NCBI GenBank assembly: GCA_963804755.1
Contig: CAWDRP010000002.1
Coordinates: 118,179-182,178 of the forward strand
Length of the DNA: 64,000 nucleotides
Reading direction: 5' to 3'
Origin: an uncultured Acidobacteriota bacterium
GTDB taxonomy: Bacteria; Acidobacteriota; Terriglobia; UBA7540
In this document: positions 9,741 through 47,760 of the stretch, piece by piece
Position numbering within the stretch: position 1 is the stretch's first letter
How the letters are laid out: the number at the start of each line of letters is the position of its first letter
The notes under the pieces: generated by a model
Databases searched by the model: none
The model's input: only the letters and a program-made list of their open reading frames with translations
What the model was told of the DNA's origin: nothing
Translations under genes and position numbers: made by a program

Positions 9741-12029
9741 TTAGTGATGTCCGCCACCACCGCCGCCGGAGAAGCCACCCCCGCTGCTGTGGCTGCCGCC
9801 CGCCGAGGAACTCGCGCCGCTGGAGCGTGCGCCACCGGAGTAGCCACCGCCCGAACTGCCGCCGTGGGAACCGCCTGTGGAGCCATGGGCCGCGACCACA
9901 GCGCCTGAACCGCCGCCGAACGAGCGCGAGCCGCCAGGGTTACTAATAACCGGAGCGCCGCCACTCGAGCCGCCGTGCCTTCCGCCTCCAGTAACAGCAC
10001 TGCCGCGAAACTCACCCGGTGTACCCCGCACAGCAAGGTGGCCTCCCAGCGTCGCGCCCTGGAATGCCCGCAACGGCGCGTGGCCGGCATGATGACTTGC
10101 CAGCAGCGCGCTCTCCTTTGCTGCATCACCCCCCATCAGGATGGTGGAAGGCGCACCGTGGTGTGATGCGAAGCTTGAACTCGAGCCACGGGTCGTCGCC
10201 GATGCTGCCGCCGACGCCATCGCTGCGCCCGTCCCTTGCGGAGAGGGTCCAAAAGGCGGTCGGTCGATCCTGCTTCCCTGCGGGGGCAGAACGCGGGTGG
10301 CGATTTGCGCCGTAATCATTTGGCCATTCTGGAAGGCCGCAGTGGGCACTCGGATCATTTCGGCTGACCTGATGCGGGGACCCGCGCCGGGAGGATGAAT
10401 GCCTACGGGTGGCCGGGGTCCGGGGCGGCCCGTCCCCGGGAATCCAGTACTGCTGCCCGAACCTAGGGGCCGCCAGCCGATCCATCCCGGTCCCATATAC
10501 CAACTGACCAGCGAACCTTCCCAAAGCCCGCATGAGTACATCGGGTTCATCCAATACCAACCGAAGCTCGCGTCGAAATCCCAAAGCCCGCAGTGGTCAG
10601 TCACCCAGCCCCATGGGTCGGCGGAAATCCACGCCCAGCCGTAGCCCGAGTACCATGACCACATCCCATTCGTATAAGGCGACCAACCGGCCAGGGAGTA
10701 AGGCGACCAGCCGAACCTGCCACCGGCAAGCGAAACCCACTCACCGTAGGTGTTCAGGTCACCCCAGCCATAGCTTGTCCCCATCGGATGCACGGCCTCG
10801 TCCATCGCCGTAAGCTCTGCCTGCTTGTCCCGTGCCTCCGCCCACTGGTCCCAAGCGTCCTTCACAATTCGCTTCGGGGAGTTGACGGCCATTTCCGTGC
10901 CGCCTATTCTGCGTTCGAATGTCTTGCCTTCAGTCAGACTGGAAGACACCCCCGGCGCGTCAACATCCACCGAGCCATTGAAAACTTCCACGCGAAAGTG
11001 GTCCTGATCAAGGTCGGTACGGAACTCGCATTTGCCACTCGCCGTCACAACGGCGTCCGCAATCTTGACGCGGGTGGCGCCACTGTACTTGGGGAGAAAG
11101 TGGATAACGCCATCCGCTCCACGCTGTTTGGCCGCGGACGCGAAATTGTGTTCGGGCACAAAGTGGAACGTGCCATATCCCTGTTCAAAGGTCATGCCGT
11201 TCAGCTTGTTGCCGTCGGCATCCAGCGCCAATTGGTGGAAGAGCAATTGCGATTGCTCGCCGATGCGCGCCGTGGACCCGTTTTCAAATTCCACTTCGGC
11301 ATAACCGCCGGCGTCGGTGGAAAGCTCGAACCCCTCCTGAATGGGCGTATTCAGCAACGCCTTGGCTGGTTCCGCGGTGCCGGGCCGCTTGAGCATCACC
11401 GCGCCGCTCACGAAGCTCAGGCGAACCACCCTGGCATGCGATTTCGCAACCTCCGCACCCGGCGATGGCACGTACTCCAGATCCTCCCCCTTGCTCACCG
11501 TAAGGGAGTTGGCGTGTGCCGAGATCGAAACGGCGCCTGACGACACGTACAGGGTCACCTTCCCGGAATTGAAACCGACCAGGAATTGGGCTTTCCCCGA
11601 AGGGGTCAGCGTGGCGTCAGCAACCTTCACCTCGTACCCAGGTTGACGTTCAGATGCAAAGCGAAGGTTGATGTATCCCTTTTCCAAGGCGACCTGGCTC
11701 GGTTGGCCGCCATTGGCCTCGCTACTGAATTGGCTGAATTGCGCGGTGGTGAGTCCCTGGAGTTGAAGGGTGGATCCGTTCGCAAGCGCCACGGCGGCTG
11801 CACCCCCACTCGCCGTTGACAGCTCAAGGCCGTCTTCAATGGGCATGTTCACGGTTGCCGGGATCTTCTCCGCGGCGCCCGCGCGCGTAACCGTCACTTG
11901 GCCGCTCAGCGAAGTAAGCCGCGCTGAGTCAAGCTGGGAAGAACCTTGCTGAGAAAAGAGAGCTGCCGGCAGGAAAAGCAGCCCCGCGACTACAACCACG
12001 AGTACACGACGTACGCAATCGTATCTCAC
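9741..12029 (-). CDS. Secreted FecR-domain protein, paralog A: two FecR-like domains, a Trp/Gly/Tyr-rich module, a Pro-rich linker, and a long Gly/Ser low-complexity tail ending GGHH
   Basis: Alignment with the paralog start at 13739 places a GTG start (VRYDCVRRVLVVVVAGLLFLPAALF signal) preceded by GGAGG. The ORF track extends it to 12173. FecR-type motifs are VVRLSFVSGAVMLKRPG...PIQEGFELSTDAGGYAEVEFENGSTARIGE. The W-rich block is YGWGDLNTYGEW...GWSPY...PGWIGW. Confidence 0.6.
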   Translation of the reverse strand: MRYDCVRRVLVVVVAGLLFLPAALFSQQGSSQLDSARLTSLSGQVTVTRAGAAEKIPATVNMPIEDGLELSTASGGAAAVALANGSTLQLQGLTTAQFSQFSSEANGGQPSQVALEKGYINLRFASERQPGYEVKVADATLTPSGKAQFLVGFNSGKVTLYVSSGAVSISAHANSLTVSKGEDLEYVPSPGAEVAKSHARVVRLSFVSGAVMLKRPGTAEPAKALLNTPIQEGFELSTDAGGYAEVEFENGSTARIGEQSQLLFHQLALDADGNKLNGMTFEQGYGTFHFVPEHNFASAAKQRGADGVIHFLPKYSGATRVKIADAVVTASGKCEFRTDLDQDHFRVEVFNGSVDVDAPGVSSSLTEGKTFERRIGGTEMAVNSPKRIVKDAWDQWAEARDKQAELTAMDEAVHPMGTSYGWGDLNTYGEWVSLAGGRFGWSPYSLAGWSPYTNGMWSWYSGYGWAWISADPWGWVTDHCGLWDFDASFGWYWMNPMYSCGLWEGSLVSWYMGPGWIGWRPLGSGSSTGFPGTGRPGPRPPVGIHPPGAGPRIRSAEMIRVPTAAFQNGQMITAQIATRVLPPQGSRIDRPPFGPSPQGTGAAMASAAASATTRGSSSSFASHHGAPSTILMGGDAAKESALLASHHAGHAPLRAFQGATLGGHLAVRGTPGEFRGSAVTGGGRHGGSSGGAPVISNPGGSRSFGGGSGAVVAAHGSTGGSHGGSSGGGYSGGARSSGASSSAGGSHSSGGGFSGGGGGGHH

Positions 12030-32816: not shown

Positions 32817-33026
32817 GAGTTCGAAACTCGAAACTGGAAACTCGAAACTGGAAACTCGAAAATCGAAATTCGAAAATCGCACCAAGATCTAGGCCTAACG
32901 CTCGAAGTTCGGAAATCGGATTTGCCTGATTTCAGGCTCAACCCTTAACCTAATCTCGTTGCGAACTGCCAGCTTCGAGTTTCGATCTTCGAATTTCGAC
33001 TTTCCAGTTTCGAGTTTCGACCTTCG
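32817..33026. repeat. Heptamer-array hairpin: about 9 tandem NNCGAAA/CTGGAAA heptamers facing about 8 inverted copies across an ~85-nt loop, between the nfeD stop and the flotillin ribosome-binding site
   Basis: Read directly from the sequence: TTCGAAACTCGAAACTGGAAACTCGAAACTGGAAACTCGAAAATCGAAATTCGAAAATCG ... CTTCGAGTTTCGATCTTCGAATTTCGACTTTCCAGTTTCGAGTTTCGACCTTCG. The 3' arm on the mRNA strand ends CUCCGGGAGGUGAACCAUG, so it abuts the flotillin ribosome-binding site. Confidence 0.6.
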
Positions 33027-39238: not shown

Positions 39239-39260
39239 AAGTTTATCTCCTCAGAATCAG

Positions 39261-39482
39261 TCGCGAGTGACAAGTGACGAGTGACAAGCAGGCAAAACGC
39301 GCACCTCGGATGAAGTCGGTCGTCACCAGGCAATCGGCAATCAACAATCGGCAATCTCGTCATTCGCCACTTGTCACTGGATGCGAAAAACGAACTCCAA
39401 AAGTCGAAGCGCGATTTTCGATTTTCGATTTTCGAGTTTCGGTCCTAGTGACTCGTCACTTGTCACTTGTCACTCGTCACTA
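39261..39482. repeat. Heptamer-array hairpin: GTGACAA/GTGACGA x4 facing the inverted array across a ~155-nt loop that itself carries CAATCGG x3 and CGATTTT x3 tandem heptamers. Sits between the yggU stop and the POT transporter ribosome-binding site.
   Basis: TCGCGAGTGACAAGTGACGAGTGACAAGCAG ... TAGTGACTCGTCACTTGTCACTTGTCACTCGTCACTA. The right arm encodes the last 6 codons of yggU (VVTSDK*). The left arm ends 4 nt before the GAGGAG ribosome-binding site of the transporter. Confidence 0.6.
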
Positions 39483-39768
39483 CCTTTCCGATCCGCTCAA
39501 TGCTTTCCTCCGCCGAGCGTCCCGCGATGCGCAGCAATTTGCGCCGCGACTTCTGGCCGGAAACGATCACGACGCACGCTTGGGGCAGGCGCAACTCGCG
39601 GGCAAAAAAACGGACGCACGCGTCATTGGCCTGGCCTTCCGTCGCGGGGGCGTGCAGTTCCAGGCGCAGTTCGCCGGATGCGTCCACGGTCAACCGCTCG
39701 CGCGCGGCACGGGGCTTCACCCGGAGCCAAAAGGTTACGTTCTGGCCTTCTACTTTGAAGTTGGCCAT
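39463..39768 (-). CDS. yggU: YggU/DUF167 family protein
   Basis: MANFKVEGQNVTFWLRVKPRAARERLTVDASGELRLELHAPATEGQANDACVRFFARELRL is the DUF167 core. The ORF-track start at 39813 is a likely upstream extension. Confidence 0.7.
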   Translation of the reverse strand: MANFKVEGQNVTFWLRVKPRAARERLTVDASGELRLELHAPATEGQANDACVRFFARELRLPQACVVIVSGQKSRRKLLRIAGRSAEESIERIGKVVTSDK

Positions 39769-42470: not shown

Positions 42471-43184
<714 letters not shown>

Positions 43185-43275
43185 CGGGTTCGGGCGTGGC
43201 CGGGGCTACGCGAAGATATTTTGCATCTCGGGACAACAAAGACGTGTCATTCTATCACTCCCTTGCTCTATACGC

Positions 43276-43304
43276 TTGACAAAACCAACTAAATAGGCTA
43301 TAGT
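43276..43304 (+). promoter_or_regulatory. Consensus sigma-70-type promoter TTGACA-N17-TATAGT with no protein gene downstream
   Basis: cTTGACAaaaccaactaaataggcTATAGTatt. It diverges from yggS. No credible ORF follows for 1.2 kb. Confidence 0.45.
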
Positions 43305-44003
43305 ATTGGTCGATGGTTGCGGCTCGGCGTCTCGAAACCGGCGCTTCGGTACGGCCGGCGCCAGGGAAATCAGATCCGGGCATGGCTAGTCAAAAGGCGA
43401 ACATCGCGCAATACGCCCGGAGACACAATGTCCTCAGCACGTGCATCCTCCCGAACCTGAGAAGTTATTGAAAACACAAGGCCTGAAAACAGGTTTTTCA
43501 CCTCTCGAACCTGAGAACATAGTGAAAACACAACCAGTTAAGTCAAATATGAAAAAGTGAAAACGGCATGACACAATGTCCAGCCGGGCTAGCCGATAGC
43601 CTCCAGGCAGTCACCGCCTGGCACGAGCCCCCCGCCTCCATGCAGCCCGATCTTTGCTTCTCTTCGATCGTCTGGCCGTCCTTCTCTCCCGGTCCTCCAA
43701 CATCTTTGGCGGGACCCTGGGTTTTTGGCCAGGGCTTCGTCAAGGTCGCTTTTAGTGAGATCACAATGCATGCCTCCTTTTATCTCTTGGGAACTAATCC
43801 ATCAGATAACGGCATAAAAATTGCTAGCCGTACCGGATGGAGGTGTATCTTCTGCTCGGAATGGCGCAGCCCGGTAGGCTCGCGAGGCTCCTGGCCGCCC
43901 CTGACGCGCTCGGCCGCGGCTCCGCCACGTGCCTTTCCCCATGGCCTCAGCAAAAAACTCGCATCCCGCCGGCCCGCGGGGCGGCCCGCCGGGGGCCGTG
44001 GAA

Positions 44004-44082
44004 GCTCGAAATTCGAAACTGGAAACTGGAAACTGGACACGGCCTTGAGTTTCGAGTTTCCAGTTTCAAGTTTCGCTTTTTC
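44004..44082 (+). terminator. Heptamer-array hairpin (CGAAATT/CGAAACT/GGAAACT x5 facing an inverted array across an 8-nt loop) followed by a T5 run: intrinsic-terminator-like
   Basis: GGAAGCTCGAAATTCGAAACTGGAAACTGGAAACTGGA cacggcct TGAGTTTCGAGTTTCCAGTTTCAAGTTTCGC TTTTTCC. Confidence 0.4.
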
Positions 44083-44194
44083 CTAACCCTAACGCCACGG
44101 TCAGGGAAGGTGGACGGAAGAAAAAAAATTTACGAACGAAGCCACCAAGTTATTGAAAACAAAGGATCGCAGAACAAATTGACCGAAAAAAAGC

Positions 44195-44271
44195 GGACAT
44201 TTTGGTTTAAGTATCGGACATTTTGGTTCAACGTGGTGACATTTTGGCGTGGCCATGCAGCATTTTTCGGA
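44195..44271. repeat. Three perfect plus one degenerate GGACATTTTGG / GTGACATTTTGG direct repeats phased at exactly 21 bp, ~280 nt upstream of tmk
   Basis: Copies start at 44196, 44217 and 44238 (GACATTTTGG), with a GCATTTTTCGG degenerate copy at ~44260. Phasing at two helical turns suggests iteron-like or cooperative binding sites. Confidence 0.45.
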
Positions 44272-44547
44272 CACTTCGGCATGACGTGGTGACGTCTTGG
44301 ATGCCAACACCGAACGGGACCGGAAGAGGAGGACGGGCCATTTCCGACTTACCGATGTTTAGCGCTCCCACCGTCTGAACCGCCGCGACTTTGACGTGAC
44401 CCTGGGTTTTTGGCAGCCAGGCTTGTTTACCATGATCGGCGAGTGCTAGGATTCCAAATCTGGGATGACGAAACGCGAGGTTCTCACGAGCCTCGAACTT
44501 GGAGTCTCCATCCCTCCGCTTAACGCGAATCAGCGGTCCGAACCAAC

Positions 44548-45222
44548 ATGAATTCAGGCCTGTTCATCACCTTTGAAGGACTGGACGGCACGGGCAAGAG
44601 CACGCAATTGCGCCGCGCCGTTCAATACCTGCGCAAGTGCGGCCACACCGTGGTCGTGACGCGAGAACCGGGCGGAACGCGCACCGGAGAGCGCGTGCGC
44701 GACATCCTGCTGGCATCGAAAACGGAAAAGCTCGCGCCCCTGGCGGAACTGGCGTTGATGTACGCGGCGCGCGCCCAACTTCTGGATGAGGTGGTGCGCC
44801 CGGCGCTGGCCCGCGGCGACGTGGTGGTGAGCGATCGCTATAACACTGCGTCGTTCGCGTATCAGGGTTACGGGCGCGAACTGGGTACAGCCACCGTGCG
44901 CGCGTTTGACCGTGTGATTTGCGGCAACACCCAGCCCGACCTGACCATCGTCCTCGACCTCGATCCCGAGCGCGCGTTGGGGCGTGCGCTGGGACGCGAC
45001 GTCCGGCGGCGATCCCGCCATGGACGGTTCGAGGCGCAGGGCTTGGCATTTCATAAGCGTGTACGGGCGGGGTATCTGGCCATCGCTCGTGGCGCGCCGC
45101 AGCAGGTAAAGCTGGTGGCTACCGGCCAGCCGATTGGCCAGGTTCAGCATGAAATCCGCAACCTCATTGATGCACTCCTGATGCGCCGGGGCAGGAAGCG
45201 GCAGCCAAGCCACAAAGCTTGA
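44548..45222 (+). CDS. tmk: Thymidylate kinase
   Basis: FITFEGLDGTGKSTQ (P-loop) plus the DRY motif. Confidence 0.9.
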   Translation: MNSGLFITFEGLDGTGKSTQLRRAVQYLRKCGHTVVVTREPGGTRTGERVRDILLASKTEKLAPLAELALMYAARAQLLDEVVRPALARGDVVVSDRYNTASFAYQGYGRELGTATVRAFDRVICGNTQPDLTIVLDLDPERALGRALGRDVRRRSRHGRFEAQGLAFHKRVRAGYLAIARGAPQQVKLVATGQPIGQVQHEIRNLIDALLMRRGRKRQPSHKA

Positions 45223-45278: not shown

Positions 45279-46358
45279 ATGGGCTTTGACTCCTTTATCG
45301 GCAATCCGCAAGCAGTAGCGGCGGTCCGCGAGATGCTGGCCGCCGATCGCGTGCCGGGGGCATTGCTTTTTGCCGGGCCCGAGGGAGTGGGCAAAAAGAC
45401 GCTGGCACGTATGTTCGCCAAGGCGATGGTGTGCGAGCGCGGCCCTTCGGATTTCTGCGATGAATGCCCGCGCTGCCGTAAGGCTGAGCAAATGCTAGCG
45501 GCCGGACAGGAGGATTTGGCGCGGCGCCGGGAGATCAAGGAATCTGCGCGCCGGGTTGAGGGGCTGGTTTATTTCGATATTCAGATCCTCGAGCCGCTGA
45601 CCAAATTCATCCTCACCGAACAGATTCGCCAGTTGCGCGCCATCGCGTACACGCGGCCGTTCGAGTTTCCACGCCGGGTTTTTATAATCGATGAAGCTCA
45701 AACCATTCATTGGCAGGCGGTTGACCTGCTGCTGAAAGTGTTGGAAGAACCCCCGGAAACGACGCGGTTCATACTGATTTGCCCGAACGCCTTTGAGTTG
45801 CGACCGACCGTCCGGTCCCGCTGCATGCGCATGACCTTCCAGCCGGTTGACCAAGCGCTGATCGAAGACCTGATATCGCGCGAGCGGGGTTTTACCGGAC
45901 CCCAGCAGGCGCTCGCCGCGCGGGTGGCGGCAGGCAGCGTGGCTCGGGCGCGCCGCTTCGACCCCGCCGACTACGCGCGCCGGCGCCAGCCCTGGGTGGA
46001 TTTCCTGGAGGCCATAACCCGCCGGGGCGCTCCCGGCGCCAACCCGGACTGGCGGCCGGTGTTTGACTCGGCGCGCGCTCTGGCGGAGGATCGCGATGAT
46101 TTCGAAGGAACACTGAAGGTTGGCTACTCCCTGCTCTCCGATCTACTGCATGTCCGGCTCGATCAGGCGTCAGACGCCGTGGTGAATGTTGATCTCGCGG
46201 CGCGCCTTCAGGGCTGGGCGTCCAAGCTGGCGCTCAGCGGCATCGAGCAGCTTAAGGCCGGCCTTGACCAAGCTTGCCGCCTGCAAATCCGCAACGTAAA
46301 TCCCCAACTTGGGTTTGAGACCCTGGGTATCGACATCCGATCATCCCTGGCCGATTGA
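45279..46358 (+). CDS. holB: DNA polymerase III delta-prime subunit
   Basis: ALLFAGPEGVGKKTLARMFAKAMVCE...CDECPRCRKAEQ (zinc module), AAA+ clamp-loader layout. Follows tmk as in many bacteria. Confidence 0.85.
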   Translation: MGFDSFIGNPQAVAAVREMLAADRVPGALLFAGPEGVGKKTLARMFAKAMVCERGPSDFCDECPRCRKAEQMLAAGQEDLARRREIKESARRVEGLVYFDIQILEPLTKFILTEQIRQLRAIAYTRPFEFPRRVFIIDEAQTIHWQAVDLLLKVLEEPPETTRFILICPNAFELRPTVRSRCMRMTFQPVDQALIEDLISRERGFTGPQQALAARVAAGSVARARRFDPADYARRRQPWVDFLEAITRRGAPGANPDWRPVFDSARALAEDRDDFEGTLKVGYSLLSDLLHVRLDQASDAVVNVDLAARLQGWASKLALSGIEQLKAGLDQACRLQIRNVNPQLGFETLGIDIRSSLAD

Positions 46359-46723
46359 TCGTCGAGGCGGGCGACGAAGGCCGGTGGGCGCGATTTCTGA
46401 CGACCGGCAGCCGAAACTTCGCTGCGTCGGGCAACGATGGACATCCGCCACGCCATCCAATTCTATGAATCCCGAACGGCCAGCGCTGTTGGTTCAAAGA
46501 CCAGACTGGGCACCGATCCCGGCCAAATCCATTGCGGGCCGCGTTCGCCTGTGTTATTGTTCACATCATCCGCGGTTGTGTTCCTTTCACGGAATTTTTT
46601 TGTTGACCGTATGAAACCTGGACACCGGGTGGAACGTCTCAGCTAACAGAGCCGATCCGCATCTTTCGCCGGGATACGTTCGGAATCCGTGCCCGTTCGT
46701 TAGGGCTTCAGGAGCAAATCAAC

Positions 46724-47101
46724 ATGAATCGACGATTGATCCGTCCAACCCTGTCTGACGTACAGGATCAACTGGGCGCACGCATGCAGCGCAAGAAACC
46801 CGCTCCACCTGACCAGACCAACGCCGAAAACTTCTATTATCTGAAGCAAATGCAGGCTCGCACGCCAATGGTGGTCGTCTTGGATCAGGGGGAAACCATC
46901 CGGGGGGTAATCGAATGGTACGATAAGAATTGCATTAAAGTGCACCGTTCGAATGAACCCAATCTCCTGGTTATGAAGTCGTGCATCCGGTTTATGTACA
47001 AAGAGGGAGATGTCCGCAACGGCGGTAACCACGAAGGTGAGATCCATAACCCGCCAGAGGATAGATCAGGCGGAGTAGTCGGCTCGAGTCACGCCCGATG
47101 A
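46724..47101 (+). CDS. Sm-fold protein, divergent Hfq-like RNA-binding protein with an extended C-terminal tail
   Basis: Helix then 5 strands: AENFYYLKQMQART / PMVVVLDQGE / TIRGVIEWYD / KNCIKVHRSN / EPNLLVMKSC / IRFMYK. This parallels Hfq ([27 protein letters not shown]...QMVYKHAISTV) with YKH replaced by MKS. AGGAG ribosome-binding site. Confidence 0.4.
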   Translation: MNRRLIRPTLSDVQDQLGARMQRKKPAPPDQTNAENFYYLKQMQARTPMVVVLDQGETIRGVIEWYDKNCIKVHRSNEPNLLVMKSCIRFMYKEGDVRNGGNHEGEIHNPPEDRSGGVVGSSHAR

Positions 47102-47394
47102 TCTGCCATGGCACAAAAACGCGGCGTAGGGCTTGAATTTCAGCTCAGGGGCAAGGAGGACGATCCGGTGAAGCGCAATCGCCACCGGGTGGGGTGTTCC
47201 TTCGCCCCCCCGTCTCGCATCGCACTTGACAGCCTGGCCGCGCCTCGCCTAGCATTAGCCTGTACATGAATGTCTCACTGCATGGATTCCATCGTGAAAA
47301 TCGCTCCTTTTACGCTATGTTAATCTGCAAAGGGTTCGACGCGTGCGGCGGCCTTTAGCAAGGTTGCTTCGCGCCGGCGCAATGTGCGGCGGCA

Positions 47395-47760
47395 GTGGTT
47401 TTCGCCATTTTCTTTCTTACAGTTGCAGCCCGGGCGCAGGAGGAAGAAAAACCCAAGATTCCAGGCCTGGACAAGATCATCAGCGCCAACGAGCACTTGC
47501 TGTTCACCGGCACTGTCAAGTCAGTGGACGAAAAGCATAACATCCTGAGCGTCAGCTCTGAGGTGGGCGTGGATACGGAGATTTTTCCTATCAAGCACGG
47601 CACCCGCGTCGAGACTGCTGACGGGTTCAGGAAAAAGCTGGATGTTCTTTCCCCTGGCACCCGCGTCATGGTCTACTACGACCAACGGGCAGACCACCGG
47701 ACGGTAACCCGCATCGAACTGTTCGCCAGCGAATCAAAGAAGAAGGAGCCGCGCTCTTAG
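47395..47760 (+). CDS. Hypothetical small secreted protein
   Basis: GTG start and an N-terminal hydrophobic segment (VVFAIFFLTVAARAQ). No family recognised. Confidence 0.3.
   Translation: MVFAIFFLTVAARAQEEEKPKIPGLDKIISANEHLLFTGTVKSVDEKHNILSVSSEVGVDTEIFPIKHGTRVETADGFRKKLDVLSPGTRVMVYYDQRADHRTVTRIELFASESKKKEPRS

Follow-up and report, generated by a model that had tools for sequence, protein, structure and literature searches.

A divergent yggS–tmk promoter region of an uncultured Acidobacteriota bacterium, probably expanded by two mobile insertions, the younger an apparent MITE-like relative of the ISAs1 family

Bacterial MITEs (miniature transposable elements with inverted repeats), such as the Correia elements of Neisseria and the ERIC/IRU elements of enterobacteria, lack autonomy, end in inverted repeats and occur in multiple intergenic copies adjacent to genes; IHF-like sites and outward-directed promoter parts may be found in them. 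Correia elements measure 100–155 bp, duplicate a TA target and show no strict orientation to promoters. Tn7 relies on a dedicated target selector and enters a single site downstream of glmS. The current study is concerned with a 64,000-nt stretch of DNA from an uncultured Acidobacteriota bacterium (contig CAWDRP010000002.1; below, "the window" denotes this stretch at its full length), in which the spacer between a yggS-type gene and the tmk–holB genes contains a 675-bp element that appears to be mobile. The systems closest to this element are found in the ISAs1 family of insertion sequences (ISAs1 of Aeromonas salmonicida, ISArsp11, the Escherichia coli H-repeat elements), with which it has in common inverted repeats of ~20 bp that begin with CAGGG and a 10-bp duplication. 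For the ISAs1 family, inverted repeats of 14–22 bp beginning with CAGGG are reported together with 10-bp direct repeats (PMC11946415), and ISArsp11 in particular is described with the inverted repeat CAGGGCTGATGCAAAGTCG and a direct repeat of 10 bp (PMC6305408).

Based on comparison with syntenic relatives, the spacer is very probably a normal divergent yggS/tmk promoter region of ~224 bp that expanded when non-coding mobile DNA inserted into it twice in succession. The window Tmk finds its matches in metagenome-assembled genomes of uncultured Acidobacteriota (Terriglobia), the top identity being 87%. Nine of these relatives (L001–L006 and L008–L010; L numbers designate the loci compared) retain the order of yggS divergent from tmk–holB, with spacers of just 190–430 bp. 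Removal of positions 43266–44404 from the window spacer leaves 224 bp colinear with L001–L006 from end to end, both promoter blocks included, hence the ~1.14 kb taken out is understood as lineage-specific inserted DNA. The relatives' spacers have two blocks in common, GTGCCATTCTATCAYTCC and the composite CCTTGTTAC-N-TGTTAGGATGC, the latter representing TTGTTA-17-TAGGAT at 90–170 bp before tmk; their counterparts in the window are located at 43244–43262 and 44423–44452. The first block, when read on the strand of yggS, would constitute the extended −10 promoter listed in Table 1. A preliminary description of the window, made from its sequence, had offered conservation of the spacer upstream of tmk as a check on a regulatory role, and the check turned out negative, with the 1.14-kb segment missing from all nine syntenic relatives. 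It had also named two circumstances that would undermine its proposal, a protein gene in homologous spacers that is disrupted here and an assembly artefact, and neither of them applies.

The younger of the two insertions is delimited by its ends. The terminal repeats of 20 bp, complementary to one another at 16 of 20 positions, start with CAGGG and are near-invariant among the copies of the element, and the 10-bp duplication that flanks them is exact (10/10) both in the window and in a composite copy at L083, where it reads TCATAAGTCC, and nearly so (9/10) in L097 and L100. A shared pattern CAGGG......CAAAGTCG connects the ends of the window element with those of ISArsp11. The element thus shows what is expected of the ISAs1 family at its ends, namely CAGGG repeats within 14–22 bp and a target duplication of 10 bp (range, 8–10 bp), and it departs from the family in its coding content, with no open reading frame (ORF) of the element giving a Pfam or PHROG match that would indicate a DDE transposase. 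Lacking a transposase gene, it can at most be a non-autonomous derivative. Compared to the ISAs1 insertion sequences proper, it is also short (580–690 bp among complete copies, as opposed to 1.2–1.5 kb) and its interior consists of unrelated non-coding cargo. Of the features by which MITEs are recognized, the element shows inverted repeats, target duplication, absence of a transposase, dispersed copies and empty sites in relatives. Like bacterial MITEs, the element is non-autonomous, bounded by inverted repeats, intergenic, multi-copy and located beside genes; it differs from the Correia elements in being 4–6 times their size, in having an array of phased repeats and in keeping a fixed orientation as well as a fixed spacing to the −35 hexamer of a promoter. 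We therefore interpret it as MITE-like and as derived, without autonomy of its own, from an insertion sequence of the ISAs1 family, the ends and the duplication length both matching the published descriptions.

Evidence of dispersal came from three lines of search. A spurious 172-aa ORF of the spacer, used as bait in a protein database, retrieved its own copy and three related "hypothetical proteins", whose contigs proved to contain copies ~90% identical to window positions 43730–44404; the ORF across the array, used as a second bait in a protein search, gave 14 protein clusters and with them further loci; and the sequence of the right end, when scanned against metagenomes, added seven more. 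Taken together, 17 other distinct loci carry copies of the element in unrelated gene neighbourhoods at 77–92% identity, thus making 18 loci in all, and they are taken to form a family of non-autonomous elements of ISAs1 type, not described before, in uncultured peat/soil Acidobacteriota. Conservation across the copies is uneven. The left 150 bp (92–99%) and the segment 44105–44254, comprising an A-run, the TTGAAAAC module and the array (88–98%), stand out from a middle part that includes the hairpin, is conserved at 43–83% and has many indels. On the minus strand at window positions 43755–43790, the conserved left end features AAAGGAGG followed by ATG or GTG, which read outward across the inverted repeat of that end; between copies, the short peptide so specified is not conserved. 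At L083 (9761–10611), a 202-bp mini element (9761–9962) with identical CAGGG ends is placed in tandem with a 590-bp copy, and the pair is bracketed by the single 10-bp duplication TCATAAGTCC, so that elements of this type are seen to stack at one site, as in the window. The element core has a distant relative at L006, 17184–17318 on the minus strand (nhmmer E = 1.5e-5), in a genome whose Tmk is 72% identical to that of the window, and motifs that the window shows apart, in its younger and its older insertion, are united there.

A DDE transposase of the ISAs1 type presumably moves the element in trans, and an autonomous partner would be expected to carry ends of the form CAGGG...CGTCAARGTCGC. 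One candidate for such a partner, the DDE_Tnp_1 gene in L083, was dismissed because it is not accompanied by CAGGG ends. A link to an IS1595 transposase beside the copy in L084 was dismissed as well, the ends of the latter being unrelated to those of the element.

The older insertion, upstream of the younger one, terminates in CTTTGGCGGGACCCTG, which agrees with the right inverted repeat of the family at 15 of 20 positions and is directly followed by the GGTTTTTGGC target. Between that end and the first of its 33-nt modules there are 272 bp, a distance identical to the one in the younger element, and this accounts for the 685-bp offset at which two pairs of repeats occur in the spacer. One of them is GACCCTGGGTTTTTGGC, present exactly twice (43713–43729 and 44398–44414; 0.19 expected even when 3 mismatches are allowed) and in reality part of a 26-bp direct repeat that starts at 43704 and 44389. 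What the preliminary description considered a duplicated hairpin at these places is the element's right end together with the duplicated target. At the left junction, two sequences pair across the 10-bp target, CCCTG with which the older piece ends and CAGGG with which the younger element begins. Two other explanations of the repeats were discarded. The 26-bp repeat does not suit an attC site or a cassette boundary of an integron, its core motifs being a misfit to the consensus on inspection. A diverged 685-bp tandem duplication would explain the offset common to both repeat pairs but not the lack of similarity between the anchors, and the offset is better read as that of two related elements with one architecture. 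The core relative in L006 joins TGAAAACAAAGG with GTGACACAATGGCC, in resemblance to GACACAATGTCC of the older piece. An exact 12-bp direct repeat of GACACAATGTCC (43422–43433 and 43570–43581) flanks both 33-nt modules of that piece and may be the trace of one more insertion of small size. We infer that the older piece probably belongs to a related family, has decayed and lost part of its sequence, and had inserted at the point that the younger one was to use again. Both insertions would have entered between the two divergent promoters, at an identical 10-bp target, and it is with the older one that the consensus promoter (43276) and the remaining TGAAAAC repeats of the spacer would have arrived.

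The cargo of the younger element comprises a hairpin, a module and an array. The heptamer hairpin at 44004–44082 is predicted to fold with −47 kcal/mol (z = −5.25) and is followed by T5; it varies or is missing in other copies of the element. It is not called in a scan for intrinsic terminators, its stem consists of A/T-rich heptamers and, among the copies, T5 is found only in the window; as the T-run is not conserved, the role of a terminator is unsupported. Hairpins of heptamer repeats are also seen elsewhere, at window positions 32823–33018 and 39250–39490, at L100 (981–1075) and in L001, L002, L003 and L005. Long hairpins with arms of tandem heptamers constitute a dispersed family of the clade, with repeat units that change from locus to locus (GAAACTN, GTGACNA, GGCAATC, GGGATAAG, GTCCGTN). 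A hairpin in the tmk leader occupies an equal place in the relatives (~9900–10000) and is built from other units, GAAACTN in L002 and L005 and GTCCGTN in L001, L003, L004, L006 and L008.

The TGAAAAC motif occurs at 43468, 43483, 43522, 43558 and 44153. As a 9-mer type it is not enriched across the window (13 matches, 11 expected), and its local cluster reflects the 33-nt module, of which two copies in the older piece (43447–43479 and 43501–43533) are 88% identical and the third, in the younger element at 44132–44164, has 67% identity. The reverse complement of this third copy resembles an IHF site, with agreement to the consensus at 8 of 9 specified positions. Motifs similar to it are found in L007, L011, L013 and L015. 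At L013 (17482–17650) and L015 (17067–17240), AAGTTATTGAAAACAAAG is located ~22–25 nt upstream of a TTGACA/TAAGAT promoter, and a terminator-like hairpin comes ~90 nt on; these loci are a candidate small RNA gene, for which Rfam returned nothing significant.

The array is composed of GGACATTTTGG at 44195 and 44216, TGACATTTTGG at 44237, a degenerate site at 44258 and the variants GGACACTTCGG at 44269 and TGACGTCTTGG at 44290. It has 2–4 units, is near-invariant among the 18 element copies and belongs to their best conserved parts. Most likely, the array would bind a protein, either one needed for transposition or targeting of the element or one with an effect on the promoter next to it. The earlier suggestion of a protein-binding or iteron-like array is thus upheld as regards form and conservation across 18 copies, though not in the specific control of tmk–holB that was attached to it, and the array does not appear to be an operator specific to tmk.

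The arrangement of the copies relative to downstream genes is strict. Of the 16 loci with an identifiable downstream gene, all 16 have this gene on the element's strand (p ~1.5e-5), and the genes concerned include tmk, uvrB, lpxK, pyrF, a hexapeptide transferase gene followed by hisS, ilvD, the gene of acetolactate synthase, type VI secretion system genes and the gene of an extracytoplasmic function sigma factor. Among 13 distinct flanks, six (window, L083, L084, L087, L097, L101) have a TTG that starts at +19 or +20 past the right end, the window doing so with the −35 of its tmk promoter, which begins 19 bp past that end. The enrichment is significant by binomial test (p 4e-6 to 3e-5) and remains so when corrected for the post hoc choice of position (3e-4 to 8e-4). 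In five of the six flanks a −10-like hexamer, with A at position 2 and T at position 6, follows at 17–18 bp (TAGGAT, TAGAAT, TAACGT, TAGGAT and, in L084, CATCAT), four of these fitting TANNNT; two further flanks present good promoters that begin at +11 or +12. The window promoter is the orthologous tmk promoter and so does not form part of the element. With a spacing of 18–19 bp to the −35, the element's right end comes to lie near −55, the core of the host promoter thus being left intact. We know of no description of promoter-proximal, oriented insertion as a property of the ISAs1 family; this placement is unusual, and so is the cargo. As an analogy of targeting only, Tn7 at attTn7 likewise shows a fixed orientation to a gene and a reproducible distance from a landmark; it differs in that the landmark of the present family is a generic −35/−10 promoter upstream of many genes and that no selector protein is known. 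The family would land in, or survive only in, 5′ upstream regions, with its right end toward the gene. The exactness of the spacing would seem to favour a mechanistic component. It is possible, albeit the less probable case in our assessment, that the ISAs1-type family is guided to promoters, the transposition machinery or an array-bound protein reading the upstream edge of the sigma-70 complex and inserting the element at ~−55 in one orientation.

Several observations weigh against the interpretation as given so far. Of eight complete copies, three (L087, L094, L101) lack the target duplication, and it is displaced by 13 bp in L084; with 582–690 bp, complete copies are large for a MITE, usually less than ~600 bp; and the element interior has no similarity to a transposase gene. 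A search of 1.7 Mb of related sequence for such ends in pairs 150–2500 bp apart returned only the known non-autonomous copies (window, L097, L100, L101) and no autonomous ISAs1 element whose ends match. Most copies are from a few peat/soil metagenomes, several of them from one sample, so that the loci may stand for only few genomes. For the older piece, neither a left inverted repeat nor, beyond the motif-level similarity to L006, a homologue elsewhere was found, and because of this its kinship is read from the right end and the architecture. Finally, the promoter-proximal pattern may reflect selection instead of targeting.

Selection is at the heart of the alternative that survives best, in which the element was co-opted as a portable upstream regulatory cassette, its array binding a host regulator and its copies being retained for their control of the genes downstream. 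The strict orientation and the fixed distance to the −35 would agree with such a role, as would the conservation of the array and the left 150 bp (92–99%) over the middle (43–83%) and the outward-facing TTGACG in both inverted repeats. We nonetheless regard it as unlikely. Array-like GGACATTTTGG sites outside the element occur once only in 1.6 Mb of related genomes, leaving no resident regulon visible, and the downstream genes are functionally unrelated. Moreover, targeting explains a fixed spacing more easily than does selection among random insertions, and the conservation may equally reflect what the element requires for its mobility.

Far less probable is the remnant of a plasmid, phage or satellite origin, with the array representing Rep iterons next to an AT-rich stretch and an IHF-like site. 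The resemblance to origin iterons of plasmids and phages (lambda ori in gene O; the viral contigs L081 and L082) is evident in 3–6 direct repeats, an 11-bp core, phasing by two helical turns and an A/T-rich neighbour. The 21-bp phasing, the 11-bp core and the variable spacers of the window array are iteron-like indeed, at least three phased repeats are present and the GC content falls to 0.44 over the array region. In two viral contigs, arrays with a GGACATTTTGG core are located within or beside genes of replisome organizers. Those arrays, of 21-bp (and 11-bp) repeats with a GGACATTTTGG or GGGACATT core, are at L081 (1–130 and 500–540) and L082 (6190–6300), and in both replisome-organizer-like proteins the repeats encode a QNV heptad. 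The viral contigs were scanned with three spacer motifs, of which two gave no matches and the array pattern matched the two iteron arrays, in analogy only; given the very large number of iteron arrays in viral data, the shared 11-mer core could by our estimate be due to chance. In contrast to iteron origins, the window array has no initiator gene with it (no rep-like gene was found in spacer or window by tblastn with two viral initiator-like proteins) and forms part of a transposable unit, with inverted repeats and a target duplication at its borders, that recurs in many chromosomal copies. Plasmid and phage collections gave no blastn match in distant mode.

Even more doubtful is the proposal from which the preliminary description set out, namely that the spacer is a resident regulatory region of tmk–holB which combines one or more non-coding RNAs, among them a transcript of ~770 nt from promoter to hairpin, with an operator array. 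The five elements on which it was built (promoter, TGAAAAC repeats, duplicated hairpin, heptamer hairpin and array) are all present where it had placed them, and a near-perfect consensus promoter, a very stable hairpin followed by T5 and a conserved array would speak in its favour. The promoter TTGACA-17-TATAGT at 43276, the sole promoter-like site within 42900–44800 (0.4 in shuffles), does exist and matches the consensus at 11 of 12 positions; it is distinct from the orthologous tmk promoter, and its homology to the relatives' tmk promoter is limited to the consensus hexamers. The idea of a tmk–holB-specific regulator is not supported, for hairpin, array, one TGAAAAC and the "duplicated hairpin" belong to the mobile element; hairpin and array travel with it to 17 unrelated loci, and the segment is missing in all nine syntenic relatives. 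The ~770-nt transcript would have its start and its end in different insertions, across the junction of the two. The stretches 43311–43729 and 44085–44404 fold no better than shuffled sequence (z = −1.06 and +0.56, respectively), and the T-run after the hairpin is unconserved in other copies. Rfam likewise lends no support. On the spacer, an E-value search of Rfam 15 yielded sau-19 on the hairpin as the sole match, at 28.2 bits as compared to a threshold of 80; over the whole window, no family scored at the gathering threshold, and the scan for tRNA and tmRNA found none. Overstated was the view of a genome with almost no other intergenic space, as exemplified by the further ~1.4 kb downstream of holB (46359–47733) that offer only short overlapping ORFs (≤125 aa).

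Least credible of all is the reading of the array region as the gene of a small peptide with aromatic-rich repeats (...TEKKRTFWFKYRTFWFNVVTFWRGHAAFFGHFGMTW), for the frame that is open in most copies (...RTFWFKYRTFWF...), annotated as a gene in many assemblies and represented by gene callers with 14 protein clusters, looked synonymous in the first substitutions examined (5 copies) but failed the coding test of this RTFWF-repeat ORF once 12 copies were included, the variable sites then distributing 21:21:19 over the three codon positions. In-frame stops in L083 and L093, a frameshift in L084, a candidate start that is TTG, ATG, ATT or TTT and a varying C-terminus add to this, and a 21-bp repeat is automatically in frame. 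The evenly distributed variation, the stops, the frameshift and the unconserved start indicate that the constraint acts on the DNA. With none of the ten ORFs of the spacer giving a Pfam or PHROG match and the lone conserved-looking one failing as coding sequence, the spacer is gene-free, as had been noted earlier. On the sequence evidence, it is neither an RNA or operator locus specific to tmk nor a replication origin. The features of the locus are summarized in Table 1.

Table 1. Positions of features at the yggS–tmk locus, in coordinates of the window
Feature	Position	Strand	Remarks
yggS-type pyridoxal phosphate-binding protein gene	42471–43184	−	Left flank; Pfam Ala_racemase_N, E = 3e-24
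Ancestral left part of spacer	43185–43262		Aligns to L001, L005; colinear to L001–L006
Putative yggS extended −10, TGATAGAAT	43249–43257	−	Conserved block
Older insertion (probable), ~457 bp	43263–43719	+	Left border uncertain within 43263–43275; missing from all relatives' spacers
Consensus sigma-70-like promoter, TTGACA-17-TATAGT	43276–43304	+	Within older insertion; putative
Two copies of 33-nt module, CCTCYCGAACCTGAGAA..TA.TGAAAACACAA	43447–43533	+	Source of TGAAAAC cluster
10-bp target duplication, GGTTTTTGGC	43720–43729 and 44405–44414		
Putative non-autonomous ISAs1-type element (MITE-like), 675 bp	43730–44404	+	Copies elsewhere, inverted repeats, no protein match
Left terminal inverted repeat, CAGGGCTTCGTCAAGGTCGC	43730–43749	+	
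(GAAACTN)n heptamer hairpin	44004–44082	+	Hypervariable module of element; belongs to separate dispersed hairpin family
Third copy of 33-nt module, ACGAACGAAGCCACCAAGTTATTGAAAACAAAG	44132–44164	+	Conserved in all element copies; carries TTGAAAAC motif
Array of GGACATTTTGG-type sites	44195–44300	+	Spacings all 21 or 11 bp
Right terminal inverted repeat, GCGACTTTGACGTGACCCTG	44385–44404	+	Reverse complement CAGGGTCACGTCAAAGTCGC
Orthologous tmk promoter, TTGTTT-18-TAGGAT	44423–44452	+	TTGTTA-17-TAGGAT in L001–L006, L008–L010
tmk	44548–45222	+	Pfam Thymidylate_kin, E = 3e-44
holB	45279–46358	+	Pfam DNA_pol3_delta2, E = 2.3e-36

Lastly, the locus has importance for annotation as well as for the biology of the family. 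A gene-free spacer that displays promoter, "terminator" and "iteron" features may be just a stack of mobile insertions, and comparison with relatives settles the matter quickly. Should the association with promoters be confirmed as guidance, the family would represent a bacterial transposon targeted by promoter architecture and a vehicle that sets a protein-binding array before many housekeeping genes. If the pattern is due to targeting and not to selection, it would be a rare instance of promoter-directed transposition in bacteria, and it would imply the natural spread of a conserved array ahead of essential genes such as tmk–holB, uvrB, lpxK, pyrF and ilv.

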